Both the position numbers and the translations under genes were made by a program. The notes under the pieces were generated by a model. It did no database searches, had not been told where the DNA came from, and saw only the letters and a list, made by a program, of their open reading frames with translations. Below, one piece after another: positions 286 through 60,351 of a stretch of DNA of 60,996 nt. Numbering within the stretch: position 1 is the first letter of the stretch; each line of letters opens with the position of its first letter. This DNA is from Kiritimatiellia bacterium (GTDB lineage Bacteria > Verrucomicrobiota > Kiritimatiellia > RFP12 > UBA1067), in the NCBI GenBank assembly GCA_017542055.1, contig JAFXXW010000007.1, positions 1-60,996 of the forward strand. Direction: 5' to 3'.

Positions 286-380
286 GATATTATATCATAT
301 TTCCACCCCGCTCGTCAAGCGGAAAGTGCAAAAACTCCCCAACTCCAAAACTCCCCCGAACGAAAGCAACTCCCCGCCCC
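286..380 (-). promoter_or_regulatory. Conserved promoter module, copy A: minus-strand TTGACG-18nt-TGATATAAT promoter plus ~60 bp conserved upstream tract, firing leftward into AT-rich DNA
   Basis: Reverse strand reads TTGACG (318-313), 18-nt spacer, TGATATAAT (297-289). 319-380 is near-identical to 36201-36260 and related to 58421-58476 (repeated GGAGTTT tracts). Confidence 0.6.
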
Positions 381-411
381 ATTTTGCTATTTGCCGGGCG
401 GAGATTAGCCC

Positions 412-447: not shown

Positions 448-1833
448 ATGATCGAGACTATTTGGGCTTTGATGCCGATTGCGGTATTGGTGGCGATGCT
501 GATGGCGTTGCGCGCGCCGGCGTGGCTGGCGGCGTTGGCGGCGCTCCTCACCGGCGCGGCGGAGGCGTATTGGCGCTACGCGACGGGACTCGGGGGCCTC
601 GCGCGCTGCTCGCTGGAAGGCGCGGCGACGGGGCTTTATCCCATCGGGCTCGTGATCGTGGCGGCGCTCTTCACCTACGCCATCACGGTGGAGTCGGGCG
701 CGGTGAACGAAATCAAGTCTGGCCTCGCCCGGCTGTCGCCGGACAAGCGATTCTTCGCGCTGCTCACGGTGTGGGGTTTCGGCAACTTCATGGAAGGCAT
801 GGCGGGCTTCGGCACCGCGGTGGCCATTCCCTGCGCGATTCTGGTGGGCGTGGGCTTCGATCCGGTCAAGGCGGTGCTGTGCGCGCTCGTGGCCAACACC
901 ACGCCTACCGCGTTCGGGTCGGTGGGGGTGCCCACGATGATGCTCGCCAAGGTGACGGGACTCGAAACGATGCGCCTTACCGCCACCATCGCGACCGCGC
1001 AGCTTGCGGTCACCGCGCTTTCGCCCTTCCTCATTCTCTACATCGTGGACGGACTTAAAGGCGTGCGCGAATGCTACAAGCTGGCGCTTTCGGCCGACGT
1101 GGCGTTTCTCGTGCCGTGGCTCGTCACCGCGCTTTTCCTCGGGTGCGAACTCCCCAACGTGATGGGCGGCATCGTCGTGATGGCGACGCTGGCCCTGAAA
1201 GGCGACTGGCGCAGTCTCGACGCGCGCAAACAGGCGCAGGCGTGGCTGCCCTTCGCGCTGGTGGTGGCGGCGCTGGGACTCTCGGCCGCGCTGGTGCCGG
1301 CGCGCTTCAAACCTTCGCCGGGCGTGCTCATTCTCCTGGCGGCCATTCCGGGGGGACTCCTCCAGCGCGTAAGCCTGCTGCGACTTTTGAAACTGCTTTT
1401 AACCACCATCAAAAAGTATTCGCTCGCGCTCCTCACCATCTGCCTCGTGCTGGCGCTCGCCAAGATCATGGGCAAGTCCGGCATGACGGGACAGCTGGCC
1501 GACGCGCTCATCGCCGCCACCGGACGCGGCTACGCGTTCTTCGCGACGGCGGTGGGGTCGCTGGGCGGTTTCGTGACGGGTTCGGGGACGAGTTCCAACG
1601 TGCTGTTCGGGTCGCTGCAGGCCAGCGTGGGGTCCACCGAAGCCCAGCAATATCTCTTCGCGGCGGCCAACGTGATGGGCGCGGGCATCGGGAAGATGAT
1701 CTGTCCCCAGTCGATCGTGCTCGGCTGCGCGGCCACAGGTCTTGCCGGGCGCGAGAGCGAGATCATGCGCAAGGCGCTCGGTTATTTTCTCGCGGTGCTG
1801 CTCTTGGCCTGCATCACGATCGCGGCGATGTGA
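448..1833 (+). CDS. lctP: L-lactate/glycolate permease (LctP family)
   Basis: ORF 412..1833. Polytopic membrane protein with GFGNFMEGMAGFGTAVAIP and GSGTSSNVLFGSLQ motifs typical of the LctP/GlcA family. Start set at ATG 448 from promoter geometry; 412 or 442 are also possible. Confidence 0.85.
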   Translation: MIETIWALMPIAVLVAMLMALRAPAWLAALAALLTGAAEAYWRYATGLGGLARCSLEGAATGLYPIGLVIVAALFTYAITVESGAVNEIKSGLARLSPDKRFFALLTVWGFGNFMEGMAGFGTAVAIPCAILVGVGFDPVKAVLCALVANTTPTAFGSVGVPTMMLAKVTGLETMRLTATIATAQLAVTALSPFLILYIVDGLKGVRECYKLALSADVAFLVPWLVTALFLGCELPNVMGGIVVMATLALKGDWRSLDARKQAQAWLPFALVVAALGLSAALVPARFKPSPGVLILLAAIPGGLLQRVSLLRLLKLLLTTIKKYSLALLTICLVLALAKIMGKSGMTGQLADALIAATGRGYAFFATAVGSLGGFVTGSGTSSNVLFGSLQASVGSTEAQQYLFAAANVMGAGIGKMICPQSIVLGCAATGLAGRESEIMRKALGYFLAVLLLACITIAAM

Positions 1834-2882
1834 TTTAGGTCGGACCGGTCAAGCCCCGTGCCCGACGGCAAGCAAAGCCCGCGCGCAAAGAGGTCTTCCG
1901 CCACTTTGCCGCCATGTGTTTTGAGGCCGGCGAAGACGGGCTGGAGATGGAGCGGCTTCCACACCGGGCGGACCTCGATATCGGCCTTTTCGAACGCAGC
2001 GATCATCCGGTCGCGCTCGGCCTCGTCGCGACAAAGCATCACGTTGAGCCAATGGTTTTCGCCTTCGACGGGCGGGAGGAAGTCGAGTCCCGTTTCGCGA
2101 TAGCACCGCGCGGTGGCGGCGCGTTTTTCGAGAATGGCGGGGAGCCGGTCGAGCTGGGCGAGGCCTACGGCGGCCAGGAGATTGGACAAGCGGTAATTGT
2201 ACCCCACGCGCTTGTGTTCGTACCAGAGCACGGGTTCGCGCGCCTGCTGCGAACGCGACTTCACCGCGGCGGCGAGGTCGGGATCGTCGGTGAGCACGGC
2301 CCCGCCCCCGGAGGTGGTGACGATCTTGTTGCCGTTGAAGGAGTAGACGGCCGCCCTGCCCGCAATGCCGGCCGGACCTTGGGGCGAGGTGGCGCCCACC
2401 GCCTCGGCGCTGTCGGAAATAAAGACCGCCTGGTGCTTCAAGGCGATGGCCTCGAGGCGCGCATAGTCGGCGCAGCGACCGTACAGATCGACGGAGACGA
2501 TCAGGCGCTTGGCCGTGGCGCACTGCGCGAGGGCGGAATCGAGGAGGTCGCAGTCGATATTGCCGGCGGGGGTGGAATCGACAAATTCCAACCGGGCGCC
2601 GCGATGGAACGCGGGACCGACCGTAGCCATGAAAGTGAGCGTGGGGGCGAAGACGGTCCAGGAGGCATCGACGCCGTAAAAGTCCATCAGCAGATCGAGC
2701 GCGGCCGTGCCGCTCGACACCGCCACCGCGTACCGGCGACGGGCAAGCGCGGCGAGGCGACGCTCGAACTCGTCCACCTGCGGGCCGCAAGGCGCGATGT
2801 AGTTGGAATCGAACGCGCGCGATACGAGATGGCGCTCGAGCTCGCCCACGAACGGAGGAGAAAGGAAAATGCGGTCACTCAT
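1782..2882 (-). CDS. DegT/DnrJ/EryC1/StrS-family PLP-dependent sugar aminotransferase
   Basis: ORF 1782..3023 trimmed to MSDRIFLSPP. SGTAALDLL and YSFNGNKIVTTSGGGAVLTDD (PLP-lysine region) are typical of the family. The longer ORF N-terminus runs into the upstream gene. Confidence 0.8.
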   Translation of the reverse strand: MSDRIFLSPPFVGELERHLVSRAFDSNYIAPCGPQVDEFERRLAALARRRYAVAVSSGTAALDLLMDFYGVDASWTVFAPTLTFMATVGPAFHRGARLEFVDSTPAGNIDCDLLDSALAQCATAKRLIVSVDLYGRCADYARLEAIALKHQAVFISDSAEAVGATSPQGPAGIAGRAAVYSFNGNKIVTTSGGGAVLTDDPDLAAAVKSRSQQAREPVLWYEHKRVGYNYRLSNLLAAVGLAQLDRLPAILEKRAATARCYRETGLDFLPPVEGENHWLNVMLCRDEAERDRMIAAFEKADIEVRPVWKPLHLQPVFAGLKTHGGKVAEDLFARGLCLPSGTGLDRSDLNHIAAIVMQAKSSTARK

Positions 2883-4302
2883 GGTAGCGAATCGGCTCCT
2901 TGCCGGCGCGGATGCGTCGATAGGTTTTGGTTTTGACGTCGTAATAGCAGCACTCGACTTCCGGCAGCGCGGGGGCGCCGTCCGCCACGAAGTACCCCTT
3001 CCATTCCCCGGGTTGCCAAGCAAAGGCGGCGCCCGGCGGGAGGTAGGAGTCGGGGACGTAGACCGTTTGCGTCGTCGGGGAGAAGAGTCGGCAAGTGACG
3101 GTGATCACGTCGTTGGTGCCCACGTCGAGCGAGTCGGGGAAAGTTTTGAGCGTCAGGTCTTGACCCAGAATGCCGGAGAAGTCGGCCGGTTGCGAGTCTG
3201 GGTCGAGCGGCGACGCCTTGACGGCGATGGGGGCGGTACGGACGGGGAACGCCTGTATGCTAGTGAACGAGCTGTAAAAGCCGCCCCGACGCGTCTCTTG
3301 GGACGTCTCGACCCGGACGGTAACGTCAAAGGCCAGCGCGGGATTGTCCACCGGCGCCAGGTAGCGGGCGGGCAAGCGGTAGCGATTTTTGCCGGCCGGC
3401 TGCAAGTCGCCCAGCGACAGCGCGAAAGCGTTGTCGGGCTCGACGGACGAAATCGACACGGTACCGGACGCTTGCGTCTCCAAAGCAAAGAGGAAGTCGA
3501 ATTCCTCGCCCACTTTGATCTCCGGCTTGGAAAGCGACACCGTGATCAGCGCCACGGCCGCGAAATGCTTGATGGTTTTGCCGAGCGCGAGCATGACCAC
3601 GACAAAGGCTAGAAGCCACCCGGCCACCACCTGGAGCTGGGTGACAAGCGGCATTTTGAGGAGCGGACGCAGCACCACGCGCCAAGCGGGCAGTTCCGCG
3701 TAAGGATTGCCGAGCAGCCGGGCGCGCGCGGCGATCATGGCCGACTCGATGACGGGGTCCTGACCGTAGCGCCAGGCGAGCGAGTTAAGGCGCTCGAGCG
3801 CTTCGGCGGGCTGGCCGGAATGGAGGAGCCGGCGAATGGCGAACCAGTCGTCCGGCGTGCCGGAGGGTCCGTCTTCGGTCGGGATGGGCGGCATGGCGTC
3901 CCCCTCCTCGTCGAGCGCGATATCGACCGCTTGGCCGGGCCGGGCGTGGACGGGAATCTCATTGGTGCGAAAGACGAGATCGCCGCATCGGAAGTCGATG
4001 GGGGGAAACCTAAGGACGCCGGCTTTGAGGGGACGGATGCGCCAAGTCACCCGACGGGCGGTAGGGATGGTGTCCGTTTTGGCGGAGGCTTGGTCGAGTT
4101 TCCAGACGGTCGGGTCCAGGGCGGAAGCGAGCCTGGGCGGATGGAGAGAGGAAAAGTCCGCCTCGCCGATAAAGTCCATCGTCAGCGTCATGGGGTCGCC
4201 CACCGTCACGTTGTTGACGTCGAAAAACGCGCGGGCGGACAGCTTGGTGCCGGTTACGCCGGTCAGCTCGATGACCGCCATCAGTAGGGCCGCGAGCATC
4301 AT
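2875..4302 (-). CDS. Membrane-anchored protein with two beta-rich ectodomains, BatD-like (oxygen-tolerance family) by eye
   Basis: ORF 2875..4539 trimmed to MMLAALL at 4302 (ATGA overlap with the upstream stop). Has a hydrophobic N-terminus and a central TM segment (VVAGWLLAFVVVMLAL). The family assignment is a visual impression only. Confidence 0.4.
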   Translation of the reverse strand: MMLAALLMAVIELTGVTGTKLSARAFFDVNNVTVGDPMTLTMDFIGEADFSSLHPPRLASALDPTVWKLDQASAKTDTIPTARRVTWRIRPLKAGVLRFPPIDFRCGDLVFRTNEIPVHARPGQAVDIALDEEGDAMPPIPTEDGPSGTPDDWFAIRRLLHSGQPAEALERLNSLAWRYGQDPVIESAMIAARARLLGNPYAELPAWRVVLRPLLKMPLVTQLQVVAGWLLAFVVVMLALGKTIKHFAAVALITVSLSKPEIKVGEEFDFLFALETQASGTVSISSVEPDNAFALSLGDLQPAGKNRYRLPARYLAPVDNPALAFDVTVRVETSQETRRGGFYSSFTSIQAFPVRTAPIAVKASPLDPDSQPADFSGILGQDLTLKTFPDSLDVGTNDVITVTCRLFSPTTQTVYVPDSYLPPGAAFAWQPGEWKGYFVADGAPALPEVECCYYDVKTKTYRRIRAGKEPIRYHE

Positions 4303-5201
4303 CGTCCTTGCACCTTGTAGCGAATGGTGAGCGACTCGCGCGAGAAGCGGTCGATGAATTCTTTGGAAAGTCCGCGCACGATGCCGACCGAACGGGCCAC
4401 GTCCAGCGCGGCGCGGTCGGAAATCTTGTCGCCGCAGGACTTGGCGAGACGCACGTCCACCATTCGACCCGAAGTGGCGAATTTGACGGACAGGTACACC
4501 GTGCCGTCCGCGCCCACTTTGGGCATCATGGCGTCCCATTTTTCGTTGAGCGCCATCTGGATGAGACTCACCCCCAGCTGCAGGTCGCTTTCGGCCAGCT
4601 GGTTGGCGGTGCCGGGCCTGTAGCCGGCGTTGAGAAGCTTTTGGATTTCCGCCTGCGACATCGTCTGCTTGGCAGTGCGACCGTTGCCGGTGGGAACGTT
4701 TTTGACCTTGATCTTCACTTCCTTGGCGCTCTCGCGCATCCGCTTGAGCCGGTCCTCCGGGGATTCCTTGGGCTTCTCCGGCTTTTTCTCCTCCTTGGGG
4801 GGATCGGGCTTTTTGACCTCGGGCTTCTTTTCTTCCTTGGGCGGGTCGGGCTTTTTGACTTCCGGCTTGGGCTTTTCCTTGACGTACTCCACCGCCTCCT
4901 GCTTGGAGTCGATTTTGGGAATCTCCTCCACCTTGGGCGGGTCGGGCTTTTTGACTTCCGGCTTGGGCGGTTCGGGTTCGGGGTTGTCGAGGGGCGGGGG
5001 CTCGTTGTCCACGCCGTCCAGATTCTCGTTGACGATCACGGTGAGGTCGATGGGGATCACCGTCTCCTTGGGCTGGAACTTGAAGAGCGCAATCGACGCG
5101 AGAATGGTGAAGAAGACGATATGCACCAAAAGCGAAACGCCCAAGGTAAAGGGCGAAACCACTTCCGGCGGACGGCTATCGGCTTCGGGCGAGTACATCA
5201 T
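4299..5201 (-). CDS. tonB: TonB-like energy transducer with Pro/Lys/Glu-rich repeat spacer
   Basis: ORF 4299..5240, start set at MMYSPEAD (5201, ATGA overlap with the exbD stop). It has an N-terminal TM anchor, KPEVKKPDPPKEEKK repeats and a C-terminal TonB/TolA-type domain. Position is directly after exbB-exbD. Confidence 0.7.
   Translation of the reverse strand: MMYSPEADSRPPEVVSPFTLGVSLLVHIVFFTILASIALFKFQPKETVIPIDLTVIVNENLDGVDNEPPPLDNPEPEPPKPEVKKPDPPKVEEIPKIDSKQEAVEYVKEKPKPEVKKPDPPKEEKKPEVKKPDPPKEEKKPEKPKESPEDRLKRMRESAKEVKIKVKNVPTGNGRTAKQTMSQAEIQKLLNAGYRPGTANQLAESDLQLGVSLIQMALNEKWDAMMPKVGADGTVYLSVKFATSGRMVDVRLAKSCGDKISDRAALDVARSVGIVRGLSKEFIDRFSRESLTIRYKVQGR
4793..4966 (-). repeat. In-frame coding tandem repeats inside tonB-like gene
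   Basis: Three copies of ccttggg(g/c)g(g/a)tcgggctttttgac(c/t)tc(g/c)ggctt start at about 4793, 4835 and 4931. They encode the KKPDPPK(E/V)E units. Confidence 0.8.
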
Positions 5202-29325: not shown

Positions 29326-29334
29326 TGAAGTAAT

Positions 29335-29363
29335 AGTATATCATATTCCGCCCGAAAAATCAA
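29335..29363 (-). promoter_or_regulatory. Promoter of the nifS-led gene array (TTGATT-17nt-TGATATACT)
   Basis: Reverse strand: TTGATT (29363-29358), TGATATACT (29343-29335). Only 9 nt separate the -10 box and the nifS ATG (29325). Confidence 0.6.
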
Positions 29364-29465
29364 GCAGAATCTTGGATTTTCGATTTATGATTTTCGATTT
29401 GCGATTGTCCAATCGACAATCCCTCAATACAATCCTAAATCTAAAATCGTAAATCCTAAATCACA

Positions 29466-29554
29466 GGGGGGGTGCCCACCCCCTCCACCTATCGCCCAAT
29501 AGGGCGTCACCCCCTCGCCCCGTATGGCGACACCCCGGGGGGTGCCCACCCCCC
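29466..29554. repeat. Two copies of palindromic GGGGGGTGCCCACCCCC box
   Basis: Copies at 29466-29483 and 29537-29554, 71 bp apart. GGGGGTG / CACCCCC arms. Confidence 0.8.
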
Positions 29555-29556
29555 TC

Positions 29557-29685
29557 GAAGGTCACCCCCTGCGCTCCGCGGAAGTCAACCCCCGCGCTCC
29601 GCGAAGGTCATACCCGTGCTCCGCAGAGGTCATGGGTCGGGCTCCGCAGAGGTCCAAACCAAGCTCCGCGAAGACCCTATCATAC
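29557..29685. repeat. Iteron-like array, family I (GCTCCGCRRAGGTCA, 5 clear units)
   Basis: GCTCCGC starts at 29573, 29596, 29618, 29641 and 29663 (22-23 bp period). Degenerate GTCACCCC-type units extend leftward to about 29500. Confidence 0.85.
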
Positions 29686-29700
29686 ACTCCGGGCGAAAAT

Positions 29701-29872
29701 TTCAATACCCAAAAAGTGTGTATTGAAACCGGGTTTAGGGCAATTCAATACACAATTTTGGTGTATTGAATGTGTATTGAAATGTGAAAAGGGTGTAAGC
29801 AGAAAGTGGTATAAAATCAAAAATAATGATAAATATTACTATATATTATACTACTATTTATTTTCAATACAC
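29701..29872. repeat. GTGTATTGAA boxes (6 copies, both orientations) flanking an AT-rich tract
   Basis: Boxes at 29701-08 (partial), 29716-27, 29744-53 (inverted), 29761-70, 29771-81 and 29863-72 (inverted). 29808-29870 is almost pure A/T. Confidence 0.8.
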
Positions 29873-29914
29873 CGTACACAGCCAAATACCCCCCTCTCCG
29901 AATTTTGCCCTTTT

Positions 29915-30484
29915 TTAGCCTTTTTTGAGAGAGGGGGGGTGTTGCGTGTGTACTGAGTGTATATTCACAAAAACGGCATTTTCGGCCCAGAGTTTGCGCA
30001 AGGCGGACACCATTCGCCCTTCGAAGGCGCTTGCTAGCTCTGGGGTGTCAAAGACAGTATCGGACGTTTTATCCAGAAAATGGAAATCTGTCAGAATCGA
30101 AATGAGCTCCCCATACACCTGAGCACAAATCGTTTTGGCGCGGGCGGCGGCATTAAGGAGGAACTTTTCCAGTGCCCGGCAGGCAATCTCGTGATCTTTG
30201 ATGACATTGATAAAGAGGTCGGTATCTTCCACGAGTTCGCCTGCTTCATCCTCGAAACTATAATCGAAAGCGGACGAAAACGCCAAACACTTGCAGATCC
30301 GGCCTAACGAAAGGCGCTCCAGCGGCTTCATATCGCCTTCGATCACGCATTGCGCAGCCTTGTCGAGCGCGACCAGGTCAGCTTGAATTTCCCCCGGAGA
30401 TCCAACTTTCCGGGTGTATTCCTCGCTCAATTCCCACTCGGCCGCTTCGTACGCCGACTCTTCCGTAAGTTTTTCGCTATTCAT
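29915..30484 (-). CDS. Hypothetical acidic protein (189 aa), no recognisable motif
   Basis: Only long ORF in this stretch. Lies 16 nt downstream of the helicase gene on the same strand. Codon usage is AT-richer than the core genes. Confidence 0.5.
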   Translation of the reverse strand: MNSEKLTEESAYEAAEWELSEEYTRKVGSPGEIQADLVALDKAAQCVIEGDMKPLERLSLGRICKCLAFSSAFDYSFEDEAGELVEDTDLFINVIKDHEIACRALEKFLLNAAARAKTICAQVYGELISILTDFHFLDKTSDTVFDTPELASAFEGRMVSALRKLWAENAVFVNIHSVHTQHPPSLKKG

Positions 30485-30500
30485 GATAAAATCGCTCCTT

Positions 30501-32276
30501 TCACGCCTTTTCGTTCAGGAAGTAAAGCTTGGCGCCTTGACGAAGACCCTGCTTTACGAGTATGAGCCCGCGCTCCACCAGCATCGCCTCGATATTGTCC
30601 ATTTCCTTTATGTCGGAAATATGGCTGCCTTTGGAGACCGTTCCACGTTTGAGTCCGGTGGGAACATTGTGCTCTTTGATATACTGGTAGACGCGCAAGA
30701 GCTTTTTCTCTTTTTCGTCCACGTTCATGAATTTCTTGGACTGCGCAATGACGCGCGCAATAATGGACTGACACAGTTCCCATGCCCAGTTTACGCCTTC
30801 GAGCGTGACGACTGGCTCTTTGGGATCTTGACTGATGGCGTAGAGGAGCGCCAGCTTGCCCGTCTGCTCGATCGCGCGACCCCAAATGGCCATGCCGGAA
30901 TCGTCGCCCTTGCGCGAGAGTTTGTCGATGAGCGCGTCCATCTGCTTGGCGAGCTCTTTGAAGCGCTCCTTGACGCCGGGACCGTCCTGCGCGAGTCGGC
31001 GTTGGGGCATTTCGCGATCGAAGAAGTCGGGGTTGAGTTCGATCGTCTTATGGAGGTCGTCCACGAGTTCCGGGGGAATCGTCACCGCCGCTTTGCGATC
31101 TTCGTTACGCTTCGGGAGTAGGCGCGTTTCGATGATGACGCAGCGATTCAAAAGTCCGCTCAAAATCGTCTTTTCGGTAATTTCCTCGTAAAAGAGCGTG
31201 GGCGTGGCGCAGCCGAAAATGGTGAGGGATGGATTCACGGCCACCGGGGCGCTCTCGCTTTTGCCGTAGCTCGATTTGGCGCGGGCGCGGGCGCGATGGA
31301 CCGTTTCGCTGGCGGAAAAGATTTGCAAAAGGTAGTTGTAGAACGCATCCCCGCCGCCCTGCCGCTTGTCGTTCATGACATGCAGGAGATTGCTGATTTC
31401 ATCGATCTGGAAGATGGCGCTGGGCGATTCGATGATAGCGTCTTCCGTGGCTTGGCCGGACGCAGGCTGCTCGTAGAACGACCGGGCGATTTGCAGTTTG
31501 TGTCCGATGGCCATATTGACCGAGCGCGGCTTTTGCTTGCCGAAGGTTGAGGGCGCCACCAGGATGATGTAGAGGTTGGGGTACGTGCCGCGCGAGTCGG
31601 TGTAGTTGCGTCCGGCGAGGTGCGAAAGGACAGCGAGTGCGCCCGCGAGCGCGATGGCGCGGTTGGGGTGGACGGCGCTTTCCAGGGTGACGTTCATGAT
31701 CCGGTCGATGAGACCCGGCACGTGCGTGAGCTTTTCGGGCGTGGAATAGAGGTCGGCGAGGTTTTCCTCTTCGTTGGACGCGAGCTCGCCTAAGAGCGAG
31801 GCCACGGCGCGATAGTCGGCGCGCAGGACATCCATTTCGCGCTGGAGCGCGTCCACCCGGAGACCGACGGTCAGCGAAGGATCCTGCATGATCCGGATGA
31901 TGTGCTCCTGGTAGTTGCCGAACATGTCGGCGAACTTGAGGAACGCCACGTCTTCGACGTCGATCTTTTCGGGCACGGAGTCCACGAGTCCGCTAAAGGT
32001 GCGCCGGGGGTCGTCGCAGTTGCGCGCGAGGATGTTCTGACGCGTTTCGCGCGCGTCGTCCGTCTCTTCGTCGCCCGCTTTGAGGATTTCGGGGAAGGCG
32101 TCGCGGAATACGGGATCGTTGAATTTTATGCTTTCGAGCCCCGCTCCCAAAACGATAGGAAACATGGCTTTCGGACGGAATACCATCGCAGCGATAACCC
32201 GTGTCTCGCGCCGCTGCCGCTCGAGCTTGATCTCGGCTTGCAGTTGTTCCTGCTTCTTCTGTTCTTCTTCAGTCAT
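30501..32276 (-). CDS. DUF3987-type (P4 alpha / VirE-like) replicative helicase with DnaB-N-like start and C-terminal winged-helix
   Basis: P-loop LVAPSTFGKQKP, Walker-B-like IFQIDEISNLL, then NPSLTIFGCATP and LLNRCVIIE segments resembling Pfam DUF3987. The N-terminus (ETRVIAAMVF...IKFNDPVFRDAF) resembles DnaB-N. Recognised by eye only. Confidence 0.55.
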   Translation of the reverse strand: MTEEEQKKQEQLQAEIKLERQRRETRVIAAMVFRPKAMFPIVLGAGLESIKFNDPVFRDAFPEILKAGDEETDDARETRQNILARNCDDPRRTFSGLVDSVPEKIDVEDVAFLKFADMFGNYQEHIIRIMQDPSLTVGLRVDALQREMDVLRADYRAVASLLGELASNEEENLADLYSTPEKLTHVPGLIDRIMNVTLESAVHPNRAIALAGALAVLSHLAGRNYTDSRGTYPNLYIILVAPSTFGKQKPRSVNMAIGHKLQIARSFYEQPASGQATEDAIIESPSAIFQIDEISNLLHVMNDKRQGGGDAFYNYLLQIFSASETVHRARARAKSSYGKSESAPVAVNPSLTIFGCATPTLFYEEITEKTILSGLLNRCVIIETRLLPKRNEDRKAAVTIPPELVDDLHKTIELNPDFFDREMPQRRLAQDGPGVKERFKELAKQMDALIDKLSRKGDDSGMAIWGRAIEQTGKLALLYAISQDPKEPVVTLEGVNWAWELCQSIIARVIAQSKKFMNVDEKEKKLLRVYQYIKEHNVPTGLKRGTVSKGSHISDIKEMDNIEAMLVERGLILVKQGLRQGAKLYFLNEKA

Positions 32277-32286
32277 AGCGCCTCAT

Positions 32287-32316
32287 ATTATACCATATTT
32301 TCCGCCCCTTTGTCAA
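32287..32316 (-). promoter_or_regulatory. Promoter of helicase gene (TTGACA-18nt-TGGTATAAT)
   Basis: Reverse strand: TTGACA (32316-32311), TGGTATAAT (32295-32287). 10 nt separate the -10 box and ATG 32276. Confidence 0.65.
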
Positions 32317-32318
32317 GT

Positions 32319-32535
32319 CCCAATTCCCCCGCGGGACATTTCCCAATTCCCCCGCAGGACTTTTGCCAAATCTCCCGCAGGACTTTCCCCAATTCCCCCG
32401 CAGGGCTTTCCCCAAGTCTCCGTGCAGACTCCAAAAAGTCTACACGCTCACTTTGCAAAGTGTGCACGTAAACTTTCAAAAGTCTACACGCTCACTTTAC
32501 CCAAGTCTCCGTGCAGACTTTACAAAGTCGAGACG
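32319..32535. repeat. Iteron-like array, family III (~10 contiguous 21-24-bp units, CCAAnTCTCCnnGCAGACTTT / AAAGTCTACACGCTCACTTT)
   Basis: Unit starts at 32319, 32342, 32366, 32388, 32411, 32432, 32455, 32477, 32499 and 32521. The same family recurs at 56978-57063. Confidence 0.85.
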
Positions 32536-32551
32536 ATAAATATGTTTGACT

Positions 32552-33901
32552 CTATGCCTTTTTCTGCATACTCATTGCCGAATAGCCGGCAAGTATAGCG
32601 AAGAACGGGATCATTATGTACCTATAACGAGTTGCCGTAATCGGGCCAATGACAGCTGCGAGCAGGATGATACTAAGCAAAGGACTCAATACCAACAAGT
32701 AGCCGCCAAACGACAAGTCTTTATATCGCCGTATGCTTTTAATTGCGCCAATCGCTACCAGCAAATATCCTCCCAGCAGAACCAGCCAACTTACTATCTG
32801 CACACCGGCACCAAGCGCCTTTTCGCCTAAGGTATATGGCGTTTCATATTGCACCTGGTAACCGCGCGCCACACCTGAACTCCACATGTTGTCAAGCGCG
32901 TCGCAAGTTCTTTCCAGTCCCAAGTATCGCAGCAATGCAACCGTTCCGGTTCCCGCATACAAACGCGGATGGGTTTTCGCCGTATATATCATATACTCCG
33001 GCAGGTGAGCCATTAATTGCTCCCGCGCATACTTACCCATAAGTTTCGACCGTTTCATCAAATCGTAATCGGCAATTTCACTTTCAAACCGTTCCATATC
33101 GGCGAGAACCGCTTCCTTCTCTCCGACCGGGAGCAGCTGCGCCAGCCTCCCCCAATTGCAACTGTAAAGATTGGTTCCGGAAATCGACGTAATTCCGGCT
33201 GTTCCAAATGCCAACTTGTTTCTGACCATCCAAGGACTCAAACCAATCGCCACTATCGCAACCCCGGCCACTACCATTGCCAGTTTCTTTTTCCAGGTTG
33301 ACCCATACACCAGTATCAGCGCCAAGATAAACGCCAATGCCAACGGGATGCAAATTGGCTTGGCATAAATTGCCACCACAAAGGAAATAAACGAGCCAAT
33401 CAAGCACTTGACGTTCCCGTTAACCCCTCTAAAATAAAGCCACAACGCCACTATCACCGAAGACACCGCCAACTGATCGGGCATGTGGAATAGCGAATAA
33501 ATAACCGTATCGGGCATAAACAGCAATACCGCCACGCCTAACGTAATTTGAGTATCTCCAAACGAAAACGGCTTGTTCCGGAGCAAAGCAATCATTGCTA
33601 TAATGCCTACTACCACCAACAGAATATTGATTAATCCCGCAATATGCTGAGTGGCCGGCACCGAACCGGTAGCCCAATAGACCGCTGCCATTATTCCTGG
33701 CCACAACGGCATGTCGTGGGCAGATGGCATCGGGGCGTCAGACTGCGCAGTCGAAAACACCCCATGATCGATTAGATTGATACTTTCCGTCAGATAGCGA
33801 AGCCCATCATCACCCTCCGGCGAAGATTGAAATGCCCATAGGCACAGTCGCAACCCCACCCCGGCAATTACAACCCACTTCAACCACTTACTTCCCTTCA
33901 T
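32552..33901 (-). CDS. Polytopic GT-C-type glycosyltransferase (ArnT/PMT/GT39-like)
   Basis: ORF 32552..34099 trimmed to [11 protein letters not shown] (33901). Roughly 11-12 TM segments with an early acidic loop ([11 protein letters not shown]), as in GT-C enzymes. Family call is by architecture only. Confidence 0.5.
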
Positions 33902-35411
33902 GATATTCTTCCTCGGTATTGACGTTCCAAACTGTGGATTTGGCGGTTTCACCCAAGAGCGCACGAACCGCCTCGATGCCGCAAAGCATGGAGTGGTCCA
34001 TATTGTTATAACGATGCTGCCCGTTCCGGCCAATGCAGTAGAGGTTACCGAAACCATCCAGCCAATCGCGCACCTTGCCGAATTCGGCATAGGAACCAAA
34101 ATAGGCGGGATAAGCCTTCTTCACCTTGATGCGAACGCTCTTGATGACCGGCTCGTCCGCTCCCAACACCCCGATATGACGCAACTCCTCAACCGCCATA
34201 TCGATGAATGGCTTGTCTTCCATCGTCCAGAACTTGTCCCCTTCCGTGCAGAAGTATTCAAGCCCCACCCAAACATGCTTGGTAACATCGTCCACCATAT
34301 AAGGCGACCAGTTGTTGAAGATTTGGATGCGACCCATCCTTACGTCACGCTCCTGCACGTAGATCCAAGTGTCGGGTACGATATTGTTGACCGTCTTGAA
34401 CTGCGTCTGATTCTTGATGGCCAACTTGTCGACCAACAGGCCCACCGTGATAAAGTCGCGATAAGGCAACTCTGACGCGATTTTGGCTACTTCGGCCGGT
34501 TTCTGGTCGAATGCGGCAACCAGGTCTTTGACCGGCATCGAGGAGAAGACCGCATCGCACTCGAGGCGCGTACCGTCTTTCAGCTTGACCGCCTTTACCT
34601 GTCCGTCTTTGGTCTCGATGCCGACCGCTTGCGCGTTCATCCGCACCTCTACGCCCATACCGCGCAATTTGGCCGCCATAGTCTCCCAAAGCTGTCCCGG
34701 GCCTTTCTTGGGATAGATAAACTCGTCAATCAGCGAGGTTTCCTTCTTGCCGCCTTTGGGGATGAAAATGTTGAGGATGGCCTTCCACAGCGAGAGACCC
34801 TTTACTCGCTGGGCACCCCACGAAGGATCGATTTTGGACGGATGGATGCCCCACAACTTCTCGGTATAGTCCTCGAAGAACATCGAGTAAAGCACCTTGC
34901 CAAAGCGATTGATATAAAAATCTTCCAACGAGTTTTCGGGCCGCTTCTTGATTGCGCTATAAAGATAACTCCAACCGGCTTTCCAGGTACGAATCAGCCC
35001 CATCGCGATAAAGGTGGCCGGCTTGATGGAAATGGGATAATCGAAGAAATGGCGCAGATAGTAGATGCGGCTCACGCGATGCCGGCGCAGCATCACTTCG
35101 TCGGTCTCTTCCGGATCGGGACCGCATGCTTCCACGTGACATTCGCGCCCGAGGATCGTGTCATCCTTGGCGGGCTTGCCTTGAATAGGCATCAGCTCGG
35201 CCCAAAGATCGTTCACCTCTTTCGACTTGGAGAAGAACCGATGCCCTCCAATATCGATGCGGCATCCCTCATAAACCGCAGTGCGCGAAATGCCGCCTAT
35301 TTCGGATGTCTCTTCAAGCACCACCACATCCCAATCCCGGGCCTTGCGCTTCAGTTCGTACGCGGCAGTAAGTCCCGCCGGACCCGCCCCGATAATAACG
35401 GCTCTTTTCAT
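33888..35411 (-). CDS. NAD(P)/FAD-dependent oxidoreductase (amine-oxidase / UDP-galactopyranose-mutase-like fold)
   Basis: N-terminal dinucleotide-binding motif [16 protein letters not shown]...[10 protein letters not shown]. 507 aa, soluble. Confidence 0.7.
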
Positions 35412-35857
35412 TTGTTGCCAACTCCTTTGTCATTGAAAATAAGCAGCTTGCGACCTAGATAATTCCACACCAGCACAGCACCGGTCACGAATACTTTGAC
35501 TATCATATAATTCCAATCGAGAATCTCAATGCCGAACCACATACCAATCTCGGTCAGCACCAGGCCTAAGAGCCCGATTATCCCAAAGACCAGAAACGCC
35601 CCGAAGCTACGCCCCTTCCCTTTATCCTTCGCCTGCGTGAACACAAACCACAGCGATAGCGCGTAATTGACCGCCAACCCGACGATAAAGCCAAACACGG
35701 TTGCGATATACACGCCCAGCGCCCAGTCCTTGAGAAAACACTCCTGCACCAACACCAACGTTCCAAAGTCCGCCAGAAAAGCGATCCCGCCCACGATAAC
35801 ATAACGCAAAAACTCACCTGCCAATATCTTGGCCGATGCAACTACGCCTGTCTTCAT
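35408..35857 (-). CDS. gtrA: GtrA-family membrane protein
   Basis: 149 aa with four TMs. N-terminal [17 protein letters not shown] motif typical of GtrA-like proteins. GGAG Shine-Dalgarno upstream. Confidence 0.7.
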
Positions 35858-36164
35858 TATCGTTTACGCTCTCCTTTCCGCCCCTCCACCCGCACGGAAA
35901 AGAAAAAGGGCGATTCTAGTCCGTGTCTCAAGTGAGGCTCTGGAATGCCCGATACGAAACACGTTAGAATACGCCCAGAGGACGCACTCCATACCATGTG
36001 TGACTCGTATCGTAGAAATTTTCCAGATTTCACTTGAGCCAACATAGCAGAATGCTAAGTTGAATTGTCGCGCTCCTGCACTCGCAGTGGCGACGCGTGC
36101 CGGGTAAAGACTCCCATCTTCCCGGCTATGACAAAGATCAAATCGGGGGATTTCCCCGTTAGAT
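35858..36164 (-). other. ~305-nt untranslated leader (possible cis-regulatory RNA) between promoter module B and gtrA
   Basis: No convincing ORF. The minus-strand transcript contains hairpins CGGGGAAAUCCCCCG, GCCGGG-16nt-CCCGGC and GUCGC..CUGC-GAGU-GCAG..GCGAC. Confidence 0.4.
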
Positions 36165-36165
36165 G

Positions 36166-36275
36166 CTAATATTATACCATATTCCCACCCTTTCCGTCAA
36201 GCGGAAAGTGCGAAAACTCCTAAACTCCAAAACTCCCCCGAGCGAAAGCAACTCCCCTCCCCGTCAAGCGGGAAA
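36166..36275 (-). promoter_or_regulatory. Conserved promoter module, copy B (TTGACG-18nt-TGGTATAAT plus upstream tract and second CCGTCAAGCGG box)
   Basis: Reverse strand: TTGACG (36200-36195), TGGTATAAT (36179-36171). CCGTCAAGCGG boxes at 36194-36204 and 36261-36271, 67 bp apart, as in copy C. Confidence 0.65.
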
Positions 36276-39068: not shown

Positions 39069-39092
39069 AAGATTTTGTAAAAAACATCGTAT

Positions 39093-39122
39093 ATTATATC
39101 ATATTCTGGCCGTGACTGTCAA
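39093..39122 (-). promoter_or_regulatory. Promoter of tRNA-Pro and downstream genes (TTGACA-18nt-TGATATAAT)
   Basis: Reverse strand: TTGACA (39122-39117), TGATATAAT (39101-39093). The TGA of the extended -10 is the pyrC stop codon. The tRNA 5' end is about 18 nt past the predicted start site. Confidence 0.65.
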
Positions 39123-42831: not shown

Positions 42832-42839
42832 TGGAGTAT

Positions 42840-42868
42840 ATTATATCATTTTTCCGGAAAAATTTCAA
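42840..42868 (-). promoter_or_regulatory. Promoter of ftsB-led array (TTGAAA-17nt-TGATATAAT), embedded in the 3' end of epmA
   Basis: Reverse strand: TTGAAA (42868-42863), TGATATAAT (42848-42840). The TGA is the epmA stop. 8 nt separate the -10 box and the ftsB ATG (42831). Confidence 0.6.
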
Positions 42869-55927: not shown

Positions 55928-56565
55928 CACTTCTTCACCTCTTCTTCCTTGCCCTTCTTGATCACTTCGGGAGCCTTCTCGCCCTGGGCCGCGCCGGCCG
56001 GCGCGTCTTCCGGAGCCTTGACCACCGCCAGCGCCAGTTCGCCGCGCGTAACCACCGTCTGCTTGTCGCCAAGCTGCAGGTCGCGCACGAAGAGCGTCTG
56101 GTCGAGACCGAGACCCGACACGTCGATTTCGAATTTCTCCGCGATATCCTCGGGCAGGCACTCCACGTCGATCGTACGGAGCACCTGCTCCAGCACGCCG
56201 CCGCCCAGCTTCACGCCGACCGCTTCGCCCACGAGATACACCGGAACCGTCACGCGCACCTTTTCGGTCAGCGACACTTCGCTGAAGTCCACGTGAATGG
56301 GCGTACCCGCCAGCACGTCGTTCTGCATTTCGCGCATCAACGCCGGAACTTCCCGGCCGTCCATATCCAGCGTGACGAGCAGCTGCTTGCTGGCGTGTCC
56401 ACGCATGGCCATCATGAAGTCGTGCGCCGGCAGCTTGATGAGCTCCGTCCCGCCCTTCCTCATTTTCATGACGCTGCCGGGTATCATGCCCGTGCGGCGC
56501 AAACGGCGAACCGCCCCCGTACCTTGCTCGGTGCGAGGCTCCGCCTTGATCCTGATCTGATCCAT
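55927..56565 (-). CDS. rplY: 50S ribosomal protein L25 / general stress protein Ctc
   Basis: 212 aa with RRLRRTGMIPG... and HVDFSEV motifs, plus the long Ctc-type C-terminal domain. Confidence 0.85.
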   Translation of the reverse strand: MDQIRIKAEPRTEQGTGAVRRLRRTGMIPGSVMKMRKGGTELIKLPAHDFMMAMRGHASKQLLVTLDMDGREVPALMREMQNDVLAGTPIHVDFSEVSLTEKVRVTVPVYLVGEAVGVKLGGGVLEQVLRTIDVECLPEDIAEKFEIDVSGLGLDQTLFVRDLQLGDKQTVVTRGELALAVVKAPEDAPAGAAQGEKAPEVIKKGKEEEVKK

Positions 56566-56639
56566 TTCTTGCCTTTTTTGGTAATTTTCCGCCTACTCTC
56601 GCGCACCCGCGCTACCCTCTGCGGCTAAAACAGTTGTAT

Positions 56640-56669
56640 ATTATATCATATTCCCCGCCCAAAAGTCAA
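56640..56669 (-). promoter_or_regulatory. Promoter of the rplY-led 17-gene array (TTGACT-18nt-TGATATAAT)
   Basis: Reverse strand: TTGACT (56669-56664), TGATATAAT (56648-56640). A leader of about 68 nt precedes the rplY ATG (56565). Confidence 0.65.
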
Positions 56670-56806
56670 TAGGGAAAATGAAAAAACGCATTATCCCCAT
56701 TGGCAATTGGATCTATCCGCCACTAGGTGATGTACTTTTAGTGTCAATCTTCCGGTTCCAATCCCTCCCCACCACCACCCTTCTCTCCCCTGCAGTTCAA
56801 GCAAAA

Positions 56807-56950
56807 AGTGACACATTTTTATCATTAAGGTGACACCTTTTAACCTTTACGGTGACACCTTTTGACCATTTTGGTGTCACCTTTTCTATCAAACGGTGTC
56901 ACCTTTTACCACTAAATGTGTCACCTTTCACATCAAAAGGTGACACCTTA
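56807..56950. repeat. Seven GGTGWCACC(TTTT) sites at exactly 22-bp spacing (family IV)
   Basis: Core starts at 56807, 56829, 56851, 56873, 56895, 56917 and 56939. The centre base is A,A,A,T,T,T,A. The first and sixth cores are slightly degenerate. Confidence 0.9.
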
Positions 56951-56977
56951 CGCATCATCTCCCCCAGCCAGGCAATA

Positions 56978-57063
56978 CAAAGTCTCCCCGCCGACAGTTC
57001 AAAGTCTACGCGCACGCTATTGAAAGTCTACACGCAAACTCTCCCAATTCTCCGTGCAGACTA
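56978..57063. repeat. Family III repeat array, second locus (4 units)
   Basis: Units: CAAAGTCTCCCCGCCGACAGTT, CAAAGTCTACGCGCACGCTATTG, AAAGTCTACACGCAAACTCT, CCCAATTCTCCGTGCAGACTA. Same orientation and family as 32319-32535. The last unit overlaps the acyltransferase stop codon. Confidence 0.8.
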
Positions 57064-58173
57064 CCTTCCGCCGAACAGGATGCCGGCAAATTTAGGCAAG
57101 TAGCGTCTGAGCAGCAAGGTGATTGCAATCGCCCCGCCAAAACTGCCGGCAAGGCTAATAAACGCCGCCCGGATTTCCGGCACCGGGATATGCTTGAACG
57201 CGATGCCAAAATAGACAAGGAGCACGATATGAATAAGAAAAACAGGAAACGAGCACGCAGTCAGCCACTTGGGCCATTCGCTTGTAGGCGTGATGCTCCA
57301 AACCAGGTATAGCAAGCACGGAACTGCGAACTTGCCAAGCGCGATTTCGCCGCGATATCCTTTATAGGCAAAAAACAACTTGAGAACCAGCAAGCCCAAT
57401 CCGGCTATTCCGCACCAAAGCGCAACCTTCCGCCCTTCGATTTGCGGCTTGAACTTCTGAATAAATACGCCAAGTGAAAAGTAGACTATGCCGCCAGCCG
57501 AATATCCCATCCGGAAGAACTCGCGCCAATTCTCGGTCGGCAAGTGATTCTGTACGAGCGAAAACGCAAATGCCAGCCCCAACCACCAATACTTGAATCG
57601 CCCCACTCCCCATTTGAACAACCAGCCAGTCAGCACGAACAAAAAGAGACATCGTACATACCACAAGGGGACGTGGCCAGGAAATTCGGTCAAGTCCAGT
57701 CCCCAAAAACCAAGCGGATTGTGAGCTACGCAAATGTTGGTTCCAAACGGACGATGCGCAATCAAATCGGCGATAATGCTCAATGGCATAGTAGCAATCA
57801 ATGTTATGGCCGACCACAACACAAACGGCACCACCAATGATTTTATGCGTTTCGTGGTTTCGCGTCGCCACCAATCCTGCTCCTCGAAGTGTTGCGCAAG
57901 GAAGAAACCGGAGACAACGAAAAAGAACGGCACGGCAATCCGCGCAATTCCCTCTTCCATAAATTCCTGCATAAACCAACCAAGCGACAGCGCTTGCTCG
58001 GCCGGCCATGAGATATGTATCACGACCACCAAGAACGCGCATATAAGACTCATGTTCTTGATCTTCTGACTGGACTCTGCGGAAATCTGCATCTGGCACC
58101 TGACATTCTCGCGCGTGGTTATCGCCCAACCGAATGCCGGGTGCATAAAAAGAGCGCATTTCAATCCATGCAC
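57061..58173 (-). CDS. Acyltransferase family 3 membrane protein (O-acetyltransferase of surface glycans type)
   Basis: About 10 TMs, early LICAFLVVVIHI segment and FFFVVSGFFL motif typical of acyltransferase_3. The start may instead be MQISAESS at 58092. AT-rich codon usage. Confidence 0.65.
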   Translation of the reverse strand: MHGLKCALFMHPAFGWAITTRENVRCQMQISAESSQKIKNMSLICAFLVVVIHISWPAEQALSLGWFMQEFMEEGIARIAVPFFFVVSGFFLAQHFEEQDWWRRETTKRIKSLVVPFVLWSAITLIATMPLSIIADLIAHRPFGTNICVAHNPLGFWGLDLTEFPGHVPLWYVRCLFLFVLTGWLFKWGVGRFKYWWLGLAFAFSLVQNHLPTENWREFFRMGYSAGGIVYFSLGVFIQKFKPQIEGRKVALWCGIAGLGLLVLKLFFAYKGYRGEIALGKFAVPCLLYLVWSITPTSEWPKWLTACSFPVFLIHIVLLVYFGIAFKHIPVPEIRAAFISLAGSFGGAIAITLLLRRYLPKFAGILFGGR

Positions 58174-58382
58174 TCCCTCGATGCCCTACCACAGGCCCAA
58201 TACGAATACACGAAGAAAAAATGCGCCCAGAATAGACGCATCTTCACTTGCACATCGCTCGTATTTTTGAAATAGTGGTAGTATTTCGAGGGAACGACTT
58301 GTTAGCGTTGATGCTAAAATCGATGTGATGCGGAAGAACGTGTCTACCCGCCCATCCTTAAGGATTTCTCCCCTAAGAACAC

Positions 58383-58495
58383 TGATATTATATCATATTT
58401 TGCCCCTCCCCGTCAAGCGGAAAGTGCGAAAAATCCCCGACTCCGAGACTCCCAACAGCGAAAGCAACTCCCCTCCCCGTCAAGCGGAAAGCGGG
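58383..58495 (-). promoter_or_regulatory. Conserved promoter module, copy C (TTGACG-18nt-TGATATAAT plus upstream tract and second CCGTCAAGCGG box)
   Basis: Reverse strand: TTGACG (58416-58411), TGATATAAT (58395-58387). CCGTCAAGCGG at 58410-58420 and 58477-58487 (67 bp apart). The intervening tract is related to copies A and B. Confidence 0.6.
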
Positions 58496-58504
58496 GGAAT
58501 GGAT

Positions 58505-58978
58505 TCAAGCGGGGAGGGAGGACAGCTGGCGGTAGCACTCGTAGGCGGCGATGGAGACCGCGTTGGCGAGATTGATGCTGCGGGCGTGTTCGCCCGGCAT
58601 GGGGATGCGGAAGAGCTGCTCCGAGTAGCGATCGTAAAAGTCCTTGGGCAGACCGGAAGACTCGTTGCCGAAGACGAGCGCGTCGCCCGGCTCGAACCGG
58701 CAGTCGTAGAGCGACTTTTGGCCGTGCGTGGAGAGAAAATGGAGTCGCTTAGGTTTGGCCGCAGCGAGGTAATCGTCCCACGAGTCGTGGAGATGCCAGT
58801 CAAGATGCGCCCAGTAGTCCAGTCCCGCGCGGGCGATAGACTTGTCGTCGAGATGGAAACCGAGCGGTCTCACCAGATGGAGCGGCACGCCCAGACCCAC
58901 GCAGAGGCGACCGATTGCTCCCGTGTTGTGCGGGATTTCGGGTCGCAACAGGACAATGGAGAAACCGGCTACTTGCAT
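58505..58978 (-). CDS. trmL: tRNA (cytidine/uridine-2'-O-)-methyltransferase TrmL (SpoU family)
   Basis: ORF 58505..60169 trimmed to MQVAGFSIVLLRPEIPHNTGAIGR. VFGNESSGLP and SINLANAVSIAAYE SPOUT motifs. Confidence 0.85.
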   Translation of the reverse strand: MQVAGFSIVLLRPEIPHNTGAIGRLCVGLGVPLHLVRPLGFHLDDKSIARAGLDYWAHLDWHLHDSWDDYLAAAKPKRLHFLSTHGQKSLYDCRFEPGDALVFGNESSGLPKDFYDRYSEQLFRIPMPGEHARSINLANAVSIAAYECYRQLSSLPA

Positions 58979-60312: not shown

Positions 60313-60321
60313 AACCTAAAT

Positions 60322-60351
60322 ATTATACCATATTCCGGCCCTTCCGGTCAA
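60322..60351 (-). promoter_or_regulatory. Promoter of nhaC-trmL (TTGACC-18nt-TGGTATAAT)
   Basis: Reverse strand: TTGACC (60351-60346), TGGTATAAT (60330-60322). 9 nt separate the -10 box and ATG 60312. It shares the CACTTTCCGCTTGAC upstream box with modules A-C. Confidence 0.65.

Follow-up and report, generated by a model that had tools for sequence, protein, structure and literature searches.

A structured leader RNA common to two predicted glycan-modification units, one of them a strain-variable acyltransferase cassette beside trmL, in a Kiritimatiellia bacterium

The stretch of DNA analyzed here, called the window below, is the 60,996-nt contig JAFXXW010000007.1 of a Kiritimatiellia bacterium and covers only 61 kb of that genome. 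Between trmL and the ribosomal-protein operon it carries, on the minus strand, an insert of 1813 bp (56696-58508, delimited against an empty allele) made up of cassette C and its trailing arrays. The parts follow one another as promoter module C, a leader of ~290 nt, the gene of an Acyl_transf_3 membrane O-acyltransferase, four 22-bp units of a repeat called family III, and a seven-unit array of GGTGNCACC. A partner sugar-modification operon lies 22 kb away in cassette B (32409-36161, minus strand), which comprises the same leader RNA, gtrA, a flavin adenine dinucleotide (FAD) oxidoreductase gene, a GT-C gene and family III units. The main new result is this well-supported, undescribed leader RNA common to the two glycan-modification units. 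Across the loci compared (other contigs carry L numbers) it tracks gene content, unlike the flanking sequences, and it had been missed in the first-pass annotation of the window.

That annotation had described an AT-richer insert of 1.5 kb at this site. The GC content is 0.47-0.52 over 56501-58500 and 0.60-0.64 in the flanks, and an empty allele occurs in the same species, so that the AT-richer insert was confirmed; its length is ~1.8 kb instead, with the GGTGNCACC array at 56805-56957 included. As had also been stated, the two cassettes are in direct orientation, both on the minus strand, and essential genes lie between them: those for tRNA-Pro, dihydroorotase, Lgt, DivIC, MurG, aconitase and His functions, and further TIM, L9, S18, SSB, S6 and L25. 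The proposed recurrence of the architecture held as well, since cassette B repeats the promoter module, the long leader, the glycan-modification gene(s) and the family III units.

The acyltransferase gene (57061-58092, minus strand) encodes an Oac/OafA-like protein of 343 aa. PF01757 was matched with 92.2 bits (cut-off 31) over residues 44-352 of the 370-aa open reading frame (ORF), and PHROG 3333, 'O-acetyltransferase', with E = 1e-16. The exact product was found on four contigs, and 212 homologues share the conserved N-terminus M.IS..SQKIKNMSL. H26 and the segment A53-V54-P55-F56-F57-F58..S61-G62 (an FFxxSG motif) were invariant in 17 homologues; the motif FFxITG(Y/F)LF has been described for OacB (PMC4159516). 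One homologue, 51% identical, is encoded within a polysaccharide cluster together with a flippase, glycosyltransferases and an epimerase. In cassette B, Pfam and NCBIfam assigned gtrA (35408-35857), a PRK07208-type FAD oxidoreductase (33888-35411) and a GT-C/PMT_2 membrane glycosyltransferase (32552-33901), all on the minus strand. Judged by family knowledge and genomic context, both units most plausibly decorate surface polysaccharide.

The 5' leader of the acyltransferase mRNA occupies 58093-58380 (minus strand), its start site being placed ~7 nt past the -10. Within it lies a rod-shaped RNA of ~120 nt (58174-58293, minus strand) with 43 modelled pairs in helices P1a, P1b, P2 and P3 and conserved internal loops. 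The rod is followed by a U-run, located 40-110 nt before the start codon in all leaders, at seven loci. Leaders B and C have little primary sequence in common, but share the nested helices built from different sequences. The RNA also precedes acyltransferases that are 73% (L013/L016), 58% (L019), 58% (L024) and 56% (L030) identical, at loci with different promoters and flanks and with neither the module nor family III units. Seven leader sequences, each folded alone, gave the same rod of ~115-120 nt, with minimum-energy z-scores of -6.2 for C and -4.9 for B.

Covariance models extended this result. Model R1, built from C alone, retrieved L030 (104 bits), L024 (67), B (44), L019 (29) and L016 (28). 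For the B copy the R1 score of 43.9 bits (E = 6e-9) is the independent figure, as the 112.9 bits given by model R2 come from a model with B in its training set (via L009 in A6). R2, which was built without C, scored C at 133.5 bits (E ~1e-29) and the L005 copy at 135.3, and found exactly two copies in the window, at 58145-58298 and 35899-36042. MAFFT alone mis-registered the inner helices, and covariance-model alignments were used instead; in these, 97.2% of the cells were paired and 33 of the 43 pairs showed changes on both sides. Controls with the partners slid by 1-3 columns reached 44-50% paired cells and 6-12 double-change pairs, and none of 500 shuffles attained the observed values. Frequent G-U pairs occurred on the mRNA-sense strand only, and the sense strand scored 133 bits (R2) versus 28 bits (R1) for the antisense strand, which shows a strand-specific structure at the RNA level.

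In Rfam 15 at gathering thresholds only tRNA-Pro was matched in the window, and permissive scans of leaders B and C returned only microRNA and small nucleolar RNA matches at chance level. A third leader, A (1-283), was detected by neither R1 nor R2 and has no obvious homologous helices. The genes of the P0023 and P0037 homologues lie within operons that lack the leader; the RNA is thus not a feature of the whole protein family. Comparison of the leaders also suggested a second conserved element, a putative 5' hairpin CUUAGG-GGAGAAAU-CCUUAAG (58357-58377, minus strand). The string GGGAGAAAUCC (GGGGAAAUCCCC in B) recurs in a hairpin loop or stem at a site 5' of the rod in four of six types of leader (window 58357-58377 and 36144-36158, L024 ~2722-2740, L030 ~2797-2815); in B and C this hairpin stands at the very 5' end of the transcript.

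The region between rod and gene resembles an expression platform (58145-58173, minus strand), with a local hairpin GAGUGCA..UGCGCUC and the U-run. In every leader the rod is followed by 15-25 nt, then by a segment X' and the U-run. In C, X' (AAAUGCGCUC) is complementary to X (GGGCGCAUUU), the 3' strand of the apical helix of the rod. All six leaders retain the X:X' pairing of 10-13 bp although its sequence changes, that is, it co-varies: X GGGCGCATTT with X' AAATGCGCTC in C, X GTGGCGCATTCT with X' AGAATGCGCCAC in L013 and L019, X GGGCG-T-ATTCT with X' AGAAT-CGCCC in B, and X GGGCGC-GTCTTCT with X' AGAAGAC-T-GCGCTC in L024. When X:X' was forced, a long 3' hairpin formed that ended exactly at the U-run and was 3-27 kcal/mol less stable than the rod. 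On this modelled, attenuator-like topology the leader RNA probably gates the gene by premature termination. Attenuation by a leader peptide was considered and rejected, as the short ORFs (20 aa in B, M-G-G-stop in C, 22 aa in L024) were by eye conserved in neither position nor sequence. The ops element GGCGGTAGNNTG had no match in leaders B and C, and its matches in the window were at chance level; no NusG paralogue was present among the window genes examined, which represent 61 kb of an incomplete genome.

The filled trmL site is variable within the species. Three same-species contigs (L033, L034 and L035; TrmL 97% identical) carry the empty allele: their identity to the window is 97.6% up to 58509 and, from 56695 on, 99.2-99.3% in L033 and L034 and 98.0% over a short stretch of L035, with 90 bp in place of the window's 1813 bp and rplY 206 bp after trmL. 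Within the 90 bp are a separate TTGACA-17-TATAAT promoter, with ATTCCCAC, similar to the left end of the module, in front of it, and one family-III-like unit, AAAGTCTACCCGTAG. Filled alleles, with identities of 98.4-99.9%, were seen in the window and in L001, L002, L036 and L037 (contigs identical or 98.4-98.6% identical). Terminal inverted repeats or a target duplication at the trmL insert were considered and discarded, there being a weak resemblance of the ends, but one not common to L005.

The same cassette was found at another place in a different species. L005, a contig of a metagenome-assembled genome (MAG) labelled 'uncultured Verrucomicrobia', matches window 56784-58494 at positions 2739-4448 with 96.7% identity over 1711 bp, including the module, the leader, the gene, family III and the GGTGNCACC array. 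It stands beside a lactate-permease orthologue only 80% identical to window 496-1812 and, because it adjoins this permease, is assigned to the counterpart of the window's locus A and not to trmL. In a third species (L013-L017), whose permease is 83% identical to the window's and 78% to that of L005, locus A holds, between the permease and lpxI, the 73%-identical acyltransferase gene with the leader RNA and without the module. Since cassette C in L005 and the 73% acyltransferase gene in L013-L017 both occur there, comparison of the species marks locus A (lactate permease-lpxI; window 1-392, L005:2739-4868, L013:5565-7687) as a hotspot. In the window itself locus A has module A and an unrelated leader. 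Cassette B is variable too: L008, with an ogt flank that shares 95% identity with the window, lacks it and joins module B, after TATAATATTAGCATC, straight to four 23-bp units and the next promoter, so that window 32409-36161 is an insert relative to L008. Taken together, the comparisons identify the interval at trmL as a strain-variable, horizontally mobile accessory unit and its architecture as real.

Several assemblies (L003 and L004, equivalent to window 56654/56656-58486; L006, starting at about window 6; and L010-L012) break at cassette borders or generic promoters. Most of the acyltransferase homologues lie on contigs of 1.2-4 kb, which fits flanking repeats and strain variation and also the short contigs of the collection. 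The acyltransferase unit of L019 (7125-7480) is situated directly upstream of a tmRNA gene (tag ANNDYALAA) that is transcribed from a generic promoter of its own; genes for tmRNA are well-known targets of integration.

The 5' flank of the cassettes turned out to be of more general use. Module C (58382-58495, minus strand) consists of a distal box, a GGAGT-rich spacer, a proximal box that holds the -35, and an extended -10, and begins ~10 nt past the trmL stop. Its -35, TTGACG (58416-58411), is followed after an 18-nt spacer by TG-TATAAT ending at 58387, and the promoter scan gave 11 of 12 matches, with TG. The TTGACG-18 promoter that the first-pass annotation had placed in both cassettes was recovered at 58416-58387 and 36200-36171, and so were its two CCGTCAAGCGG boxes 67 bp apart (58410-58420 and 58477-58487 in C, 36194-36204 and 36261-36271 in B). 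Module B (36166-36274, promoter at 36200-36171) has the layout of C; module A (284-392) has the proximal box only, and its cargo is off the window; both are on the minus strand. The three modules (C aligned over 58382-58490) are 80-85% identical across 109 nt, with BLAST E values of 1e-22 to 1e-27, and the 3' flanks of cassettes B and C are 75% identical over 85 nt (E = 2e-9), so the similarity of the flanks noted earlier is significant when they are properly aligned. The idea that these two flanks define a cassette was not supported in that form, because the -10 block, the box, the module and ~22-bp arrays also occur elsewhere and are largely generic.

The -10 block ATATGRTATAATAT is present in 10 copies in the window against 0 expected, each with TTGAC ~17 nt upstream, which gives the uniform consensus TTGAC-N17-aATATGrTATAATAT 10 times in 61 kb (287-300, 430-443, 29333-29346, 32285-32298, 36169-36182, 39091-39104, 42838-42851, 56638-56651, 58385-58398 and 60320-60333). 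Promoters with this block include those of tRNA-Pro, rplY, nifS, the lactate permease and a transporter, and the box ACTTTCCGCTTGAC is also the -35 region of a housekeeping transporter promoter at 60345. In several genes the start codon lies 2-10 nt past the -10, so that they look leaderless or nearly so (ATG at 442/448, the HU-like gene of L005, nifS, the transporter at 60312); the ~290-nt leaders of A, B and C are unusual for this reason. The full ~100-nt module was found after the stop codons of four different genes. In L007 (505-930) it stands behind an unidentified gene, and the frames under its control are truncated ones of DUF3990 and DUF3791, a pseudogenised pair; in L008 repeats follow it, with no cargo. 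The module pattern, which is rare in the exact form searched, was matched in L005 (the single hit among 185,579 species genomes) and in the metagenome contigs L007 and L008, with no match in 2.9 million viral contigs. On the strength of these copies, the -35/-10 core is taken to be the lineage's general strong promoter, and the module a dispersed promoter element and not a marker of glycan genes, because its cargo in L007 and L008 is unrelated or absent and its core is shared with housekeeping promoters. An invertible promoter was also considered; no inverted repeats flank the module.

At the 3' side, the four family III units (56978-57063, minus strand) are common only to cassette B (32411-32522). 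The first-pass annotation was right that one unit overlaps the stop codon (the first, TAGTCTGCACGGAGAATTGGG, contains the TAG at 57061-57063) and that the cassettes share a 22-bp repeat family: the 20-mer AGTCTGCACGGAGAMTTGGG, with an expectation of 0.01, is present at only three places in the window (32411, 32500 and 57043). Its distance of ~16 bp between repeats and stop in cassette 1, that is B, stands only if the degenerate unit AAAGTCGAGACG is counted; otherwise the first well-formed unit begins 29 nt past the stop at 32552-32554. The seven 22-bp GGTGNCACC units (56805-56957, no strand assigned), each with a palindrome (A)AAGGTGNCACCTT(T), are kept with the cassette in L005 (2763-2904), where they abut the -35 of a leaderless HU-DNA_bdg gene. 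Of the promoter that drives this HU-like gene in L005, the window retains the -35 as a remnant, TTGAAC (56800-56795, minus strand); the -10 and the gene are missing from the window, whose homology to L005 stops at 56784.

The arrays that adjoin family III differ, being of the CCCGCGGG type in B and of GGTGNCACC in C, and in B the array of 23-bp units directly borders the -35 of the promoter of a DUF3987/primase gene. In L019 and L024, arrays of ~22 bp with other palindromes stand directly upstream of the acyltransferase promoter; in L019 and L030 no array was found downstream of the acyltransferase unit. Tandem arrays of ~22 bp with differing unit sequences thus recur upstream of promoters in several related loci, and look like protein-binding sites tied to promoters in the lineage's accessory DNA. 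Family III and GGTGNCACC would, on this view, probably be bound by protein as arrays of the next downstream promoter and not of the acyltransferase gene. An automated survey of arrays against promoters was crude (TRF missed known arrays) and is mentioned as an aside only. Intergenic DNA near the acyltransferase unit also contains TTCAGTAT-type and 11-bp CGTTCGGAA-type tandem repeats in L013 (7230-7450) and two 22-bp arrays in L030 (1770-1996). Elsewhere in the window, at 4776-4973, 42-bp tandem repeats (2-3 copies, 79-86% identical) lie in a region without a Pfam match, possibly part of a repetitive low-complexity protein.

The explanation that we favour, with somewhat more belief than doubt, is a horizontally acquired accessory unit for surface-glycan O-acylation under the control of a new transcription-attenuator RNA. 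Its product would add an acyl, probably acetyl, group to surface polysaccharide. The strong promoter of module C, of the sigma-70 type by its sequence, would start the ~290-nt leader, whose 3' half is predicted by computation to fold into the conserved ~120-nt rod. The 3' strand of the rod could pair instead with the segment before the U-run, and a long terminator hairpin would result. A formed rod would then mean read-through and an unformed one termination ~55 nt before the start codon; a protein, a small molecule or an RNA could act as the effector that tips the switch. With the same RNA on the gtrA/FAD-oxidoreductase/GT-C operon, both glycan units may be co-regulated. The weakest step is the exchange of the cassette, which would most likely proceed via host recombination at the short conserved promoter-like or 22-bp repeat sequences that bound it; no recombinase gene was found near any cassette copy in the window and the loci examined.

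A number of observations weigh against this explanation. The rod is made first during transcription and in each sequence exceeds the alternative in stability, which leaves a win of the terminator fold without an explanation unless an effector acts. A weak local hairpin ahead of the U-run is, in C, L030 and L024, compatible with the rod; because the two can coexist, the sign of regulation is unsettled and the logic could be the reverse. The pair counts come from six distinct leader sequences only and from an alignment fitted to the model that was counted, a caveat mitigated by the independent single-sequence folds. At trmL, 90 bp and 1813 bp replace one another, which is not a clean insertion and does not decide the ancestral allele; there is no clear target duplication at the insert, no terminal inverted repeats are conserved between the window and L005, and neither an integrase nor a transposase turned up when the ORFs and annotated genes of the window and of the loci examined were inspected. 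Finally, L005 is metagenome-assembled and may contain a chimeric join, although two mis-joins in unique sequence would be needed.

A bolder version of the favoured explanation, which we put forward only tentatively, is that the rod represents a new class of effector-responsive attenuators (riboswitch-like or the target of a dedicated RNA-binding factor) that co-ordinates several independently acquired surface-glycan units in gut Verrucomicrobiota, with the near-identical promoter blocks and palindromic 22-bp arrays serving as portable recombination anchors, by which units could be exchanged among loci and species without a cassette-borne recombinase.

Possible as well, and in our view doubtful, is that the cassettes are decayed fragments of integrated elements (a prophage, a satellite or an integrative plasmid) whose glycan genes are lysogenic-conversion 'morons' at the edge. 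The module would be the end of such an element with its promoter, the 22-bp arrays would be operators or iterons of its replication or regulatory genes, and no small autonomous cassettes would have moved. The surroundings of cassette B suit this account: the adjacent DUF3987 gene (30501-32276) matches PHROG 3022, 'DNA primase' (E = 3e-61), beyond it lies an AT-rich stretch with the 27-nt inverted repeats TTCAATAC..GTATTGAA (29701-29770), and a second 23-bp array (29492-29654) stands in front of the nifS promoter. In L008 the first of these arrays, the one next to cassette B, comes with its promoter before an AAA_25 gene, and in L005 the GGTGNCACC array precedes the HU-DNA_bdg gene and a gene matching PHROG 8741. 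Both islands are low in GC, and the module always begins right past the stop of a different housekeeping gene. What speaks for small units instead is that no integrase, excisionase, capsid or terminase gene was found in the window or the loci examined, that the module pattern is missing from the viral contigs searched, that the closest viral acyltransferases are only 27-33% identical, that the trmL insert measures merely 1.8 kb, and that the units of L013, L019, L024 and L030 lie between housekeeping genes with annotated flanks free of mobile-element genes. Apart from this, the island 29400-32280, which also contains an unknown 189-aa gene, resembles the replication module of an integrated element; no integrase was seen in it.

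An integron-like, site-specific system, in which the 21-24-bp units are the sites and promoterless cassettes are captured behind a resident module by a recombinase encoded elsewhere, appears improbable. Compared with L008, cassette B does fit precisely behind the resident promoter (after TATAATATTAGCATC) and in front of the first 23-bp unit, and it comes without a promoter; the units at the ends of both cassettes, with AGTCTGCACGGAGAMTTGGG, are nearly identical, each unit has a short palindrome, and the empty trmL site reads as a promoter followed by one family-III-like unit. That last unit is, however, in the opposite orientation, cassette C moves with its own module in L005, and the units are tandem arrays of variable sequence and not one site per cassette. 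Similar arrays occur upstream of promoters without cassettes, the L019 and L030 cassettes lack a downstream array, and no recombinase gene was found close to any copy in the window and the loci examined.

Still less probable, and largely refuted, is the view that the shared flanks are generic dispersed promoter and repeat sequence with no cassette implied. The 10 copies of the -10 block, the box in front of a housekeeping promoter, the unrelated cargo of the module and the frequency of ~22-bp arrays in the lineage all agree with it, but the family III 20-mer is confined to the two cassettes, the units that have the leader RNA in common are specifically those for glycan modification, and the interval is an indel between strains that stands at another locus in another species. 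That the rod is an inverted repeat at the DNA level (a miniature inverted-repeat transposable element or a cruciform) is hardly credible, for although it is a long imperfect palindrome with weak reverse-strand matches to R1, its numerous G-U pairs and its high score are confined to the sense strand, its position before the U-run and the start codon is fixed at seven loci at different sites, and only two copies occur in 61 kb.

The favoured accessory glycan unit with an attenuator RNA may be set beside known systems. Like the O-antigen modules of Shigella and Salmonella phages (oac/oacB, gtrABC), the units here consist of a stand-alone Acyl_transf_3 gene of ~340 aa or of a gtrA-led operon, and they are low-GC, strain-variable accessory units at varied chromosomal sites that alter, here by prediction, surface polysaccharide. 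The modules of enterobacteria are not known to have a long structured leader. OacB is encoded on phage Sf101 at sbcB and also on a transposon-like structure upstream of adrA (PMC4159516). The unit described here differs in having no integrase, att site, phage genes or close viral homologues, and cassette B is composed of gtrA, an FAD oxidoreductase gene and a GT-C gene in place of gtrA-gtrB-gtr(type), with no GT2 GtrB. A serotype-converting prophage module would have an integrase gene and attP beside it; the ORFs and annotated genes of the window and the loci include neither an integrase nor a phage structural gene.

A second likeness is to leader-dependent antitermination of polysaccharide and polyketide operons, as known for LoaP, RfaH, Bacteroides UpxY and Bacillus EAR; EAR is reportedly a ~120-nt structured RNA in eps operons (Irnov and Winkler 2010). 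LoaP, RfaH with ops-JUMPstart, UpxY and EAR share with the present leaders a long structured 5' leader and an intrinsic terminator, here a predicted one, before glycan or metabolite genes. In the LoaP system a leader hairpin and the leader terminator hold all the determinants (PMC12691694). The structure found here is a 43-bp rod and not a small UNCG hairpin, the leaders have no ops element, unlike those dependent on RfaH, and no Rfam match ties them to JUMPstart or EAR. The modelled X:X' covariation points to a structural switch rather than, or besides, a processive factor. With terminator/antiterminator riboswitches and attenuators the leaders have in common a covarying structure, one segment with two exclusive partners, and one fold that ends in a U-run. 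They differ in that conservation falls on a rod that hardly branches, has small internal loops and shows no obvious multi-helix ligand pocket, and in that the predicted read-through fold, the rod, is the more stable one and is made first.

As in integron cassettes and phage 'morons', the units are placed behind a resident promoter and ahead of the next gene, have short repeats at their borders, and are present or absent in close relatives. Unlike in integrons, no IntI or other tyrosine recombinase was found in the window and the loci, the 3' ends are tandem units of 21-24 bp with 5-7-bp palindromes and not attC sites of ~60-140 bp, and cassette C, as L005 shows, carries its own promoter module.

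In gut bacteria the modification of surface glycans governs adsorption by phages, recognition by the immune system and competition between strains, and almost nothing is known of it in the uncultured Verrucomicrobiota of ruminants. The window provides a concrete candidate regulatory RNA with unusually clean covariation, tied to two predicted glycan-modification units in one genome, together with the documented presence or absence and cross-species transfer of one of these units. The architecture of promoters and arrays hints at how accessory genes plug into strongly expressed sites near essential operons. Should a metabolite or a dedicated protein prove to act on the RNA, it would represent a new regulatory class for envelope variation.

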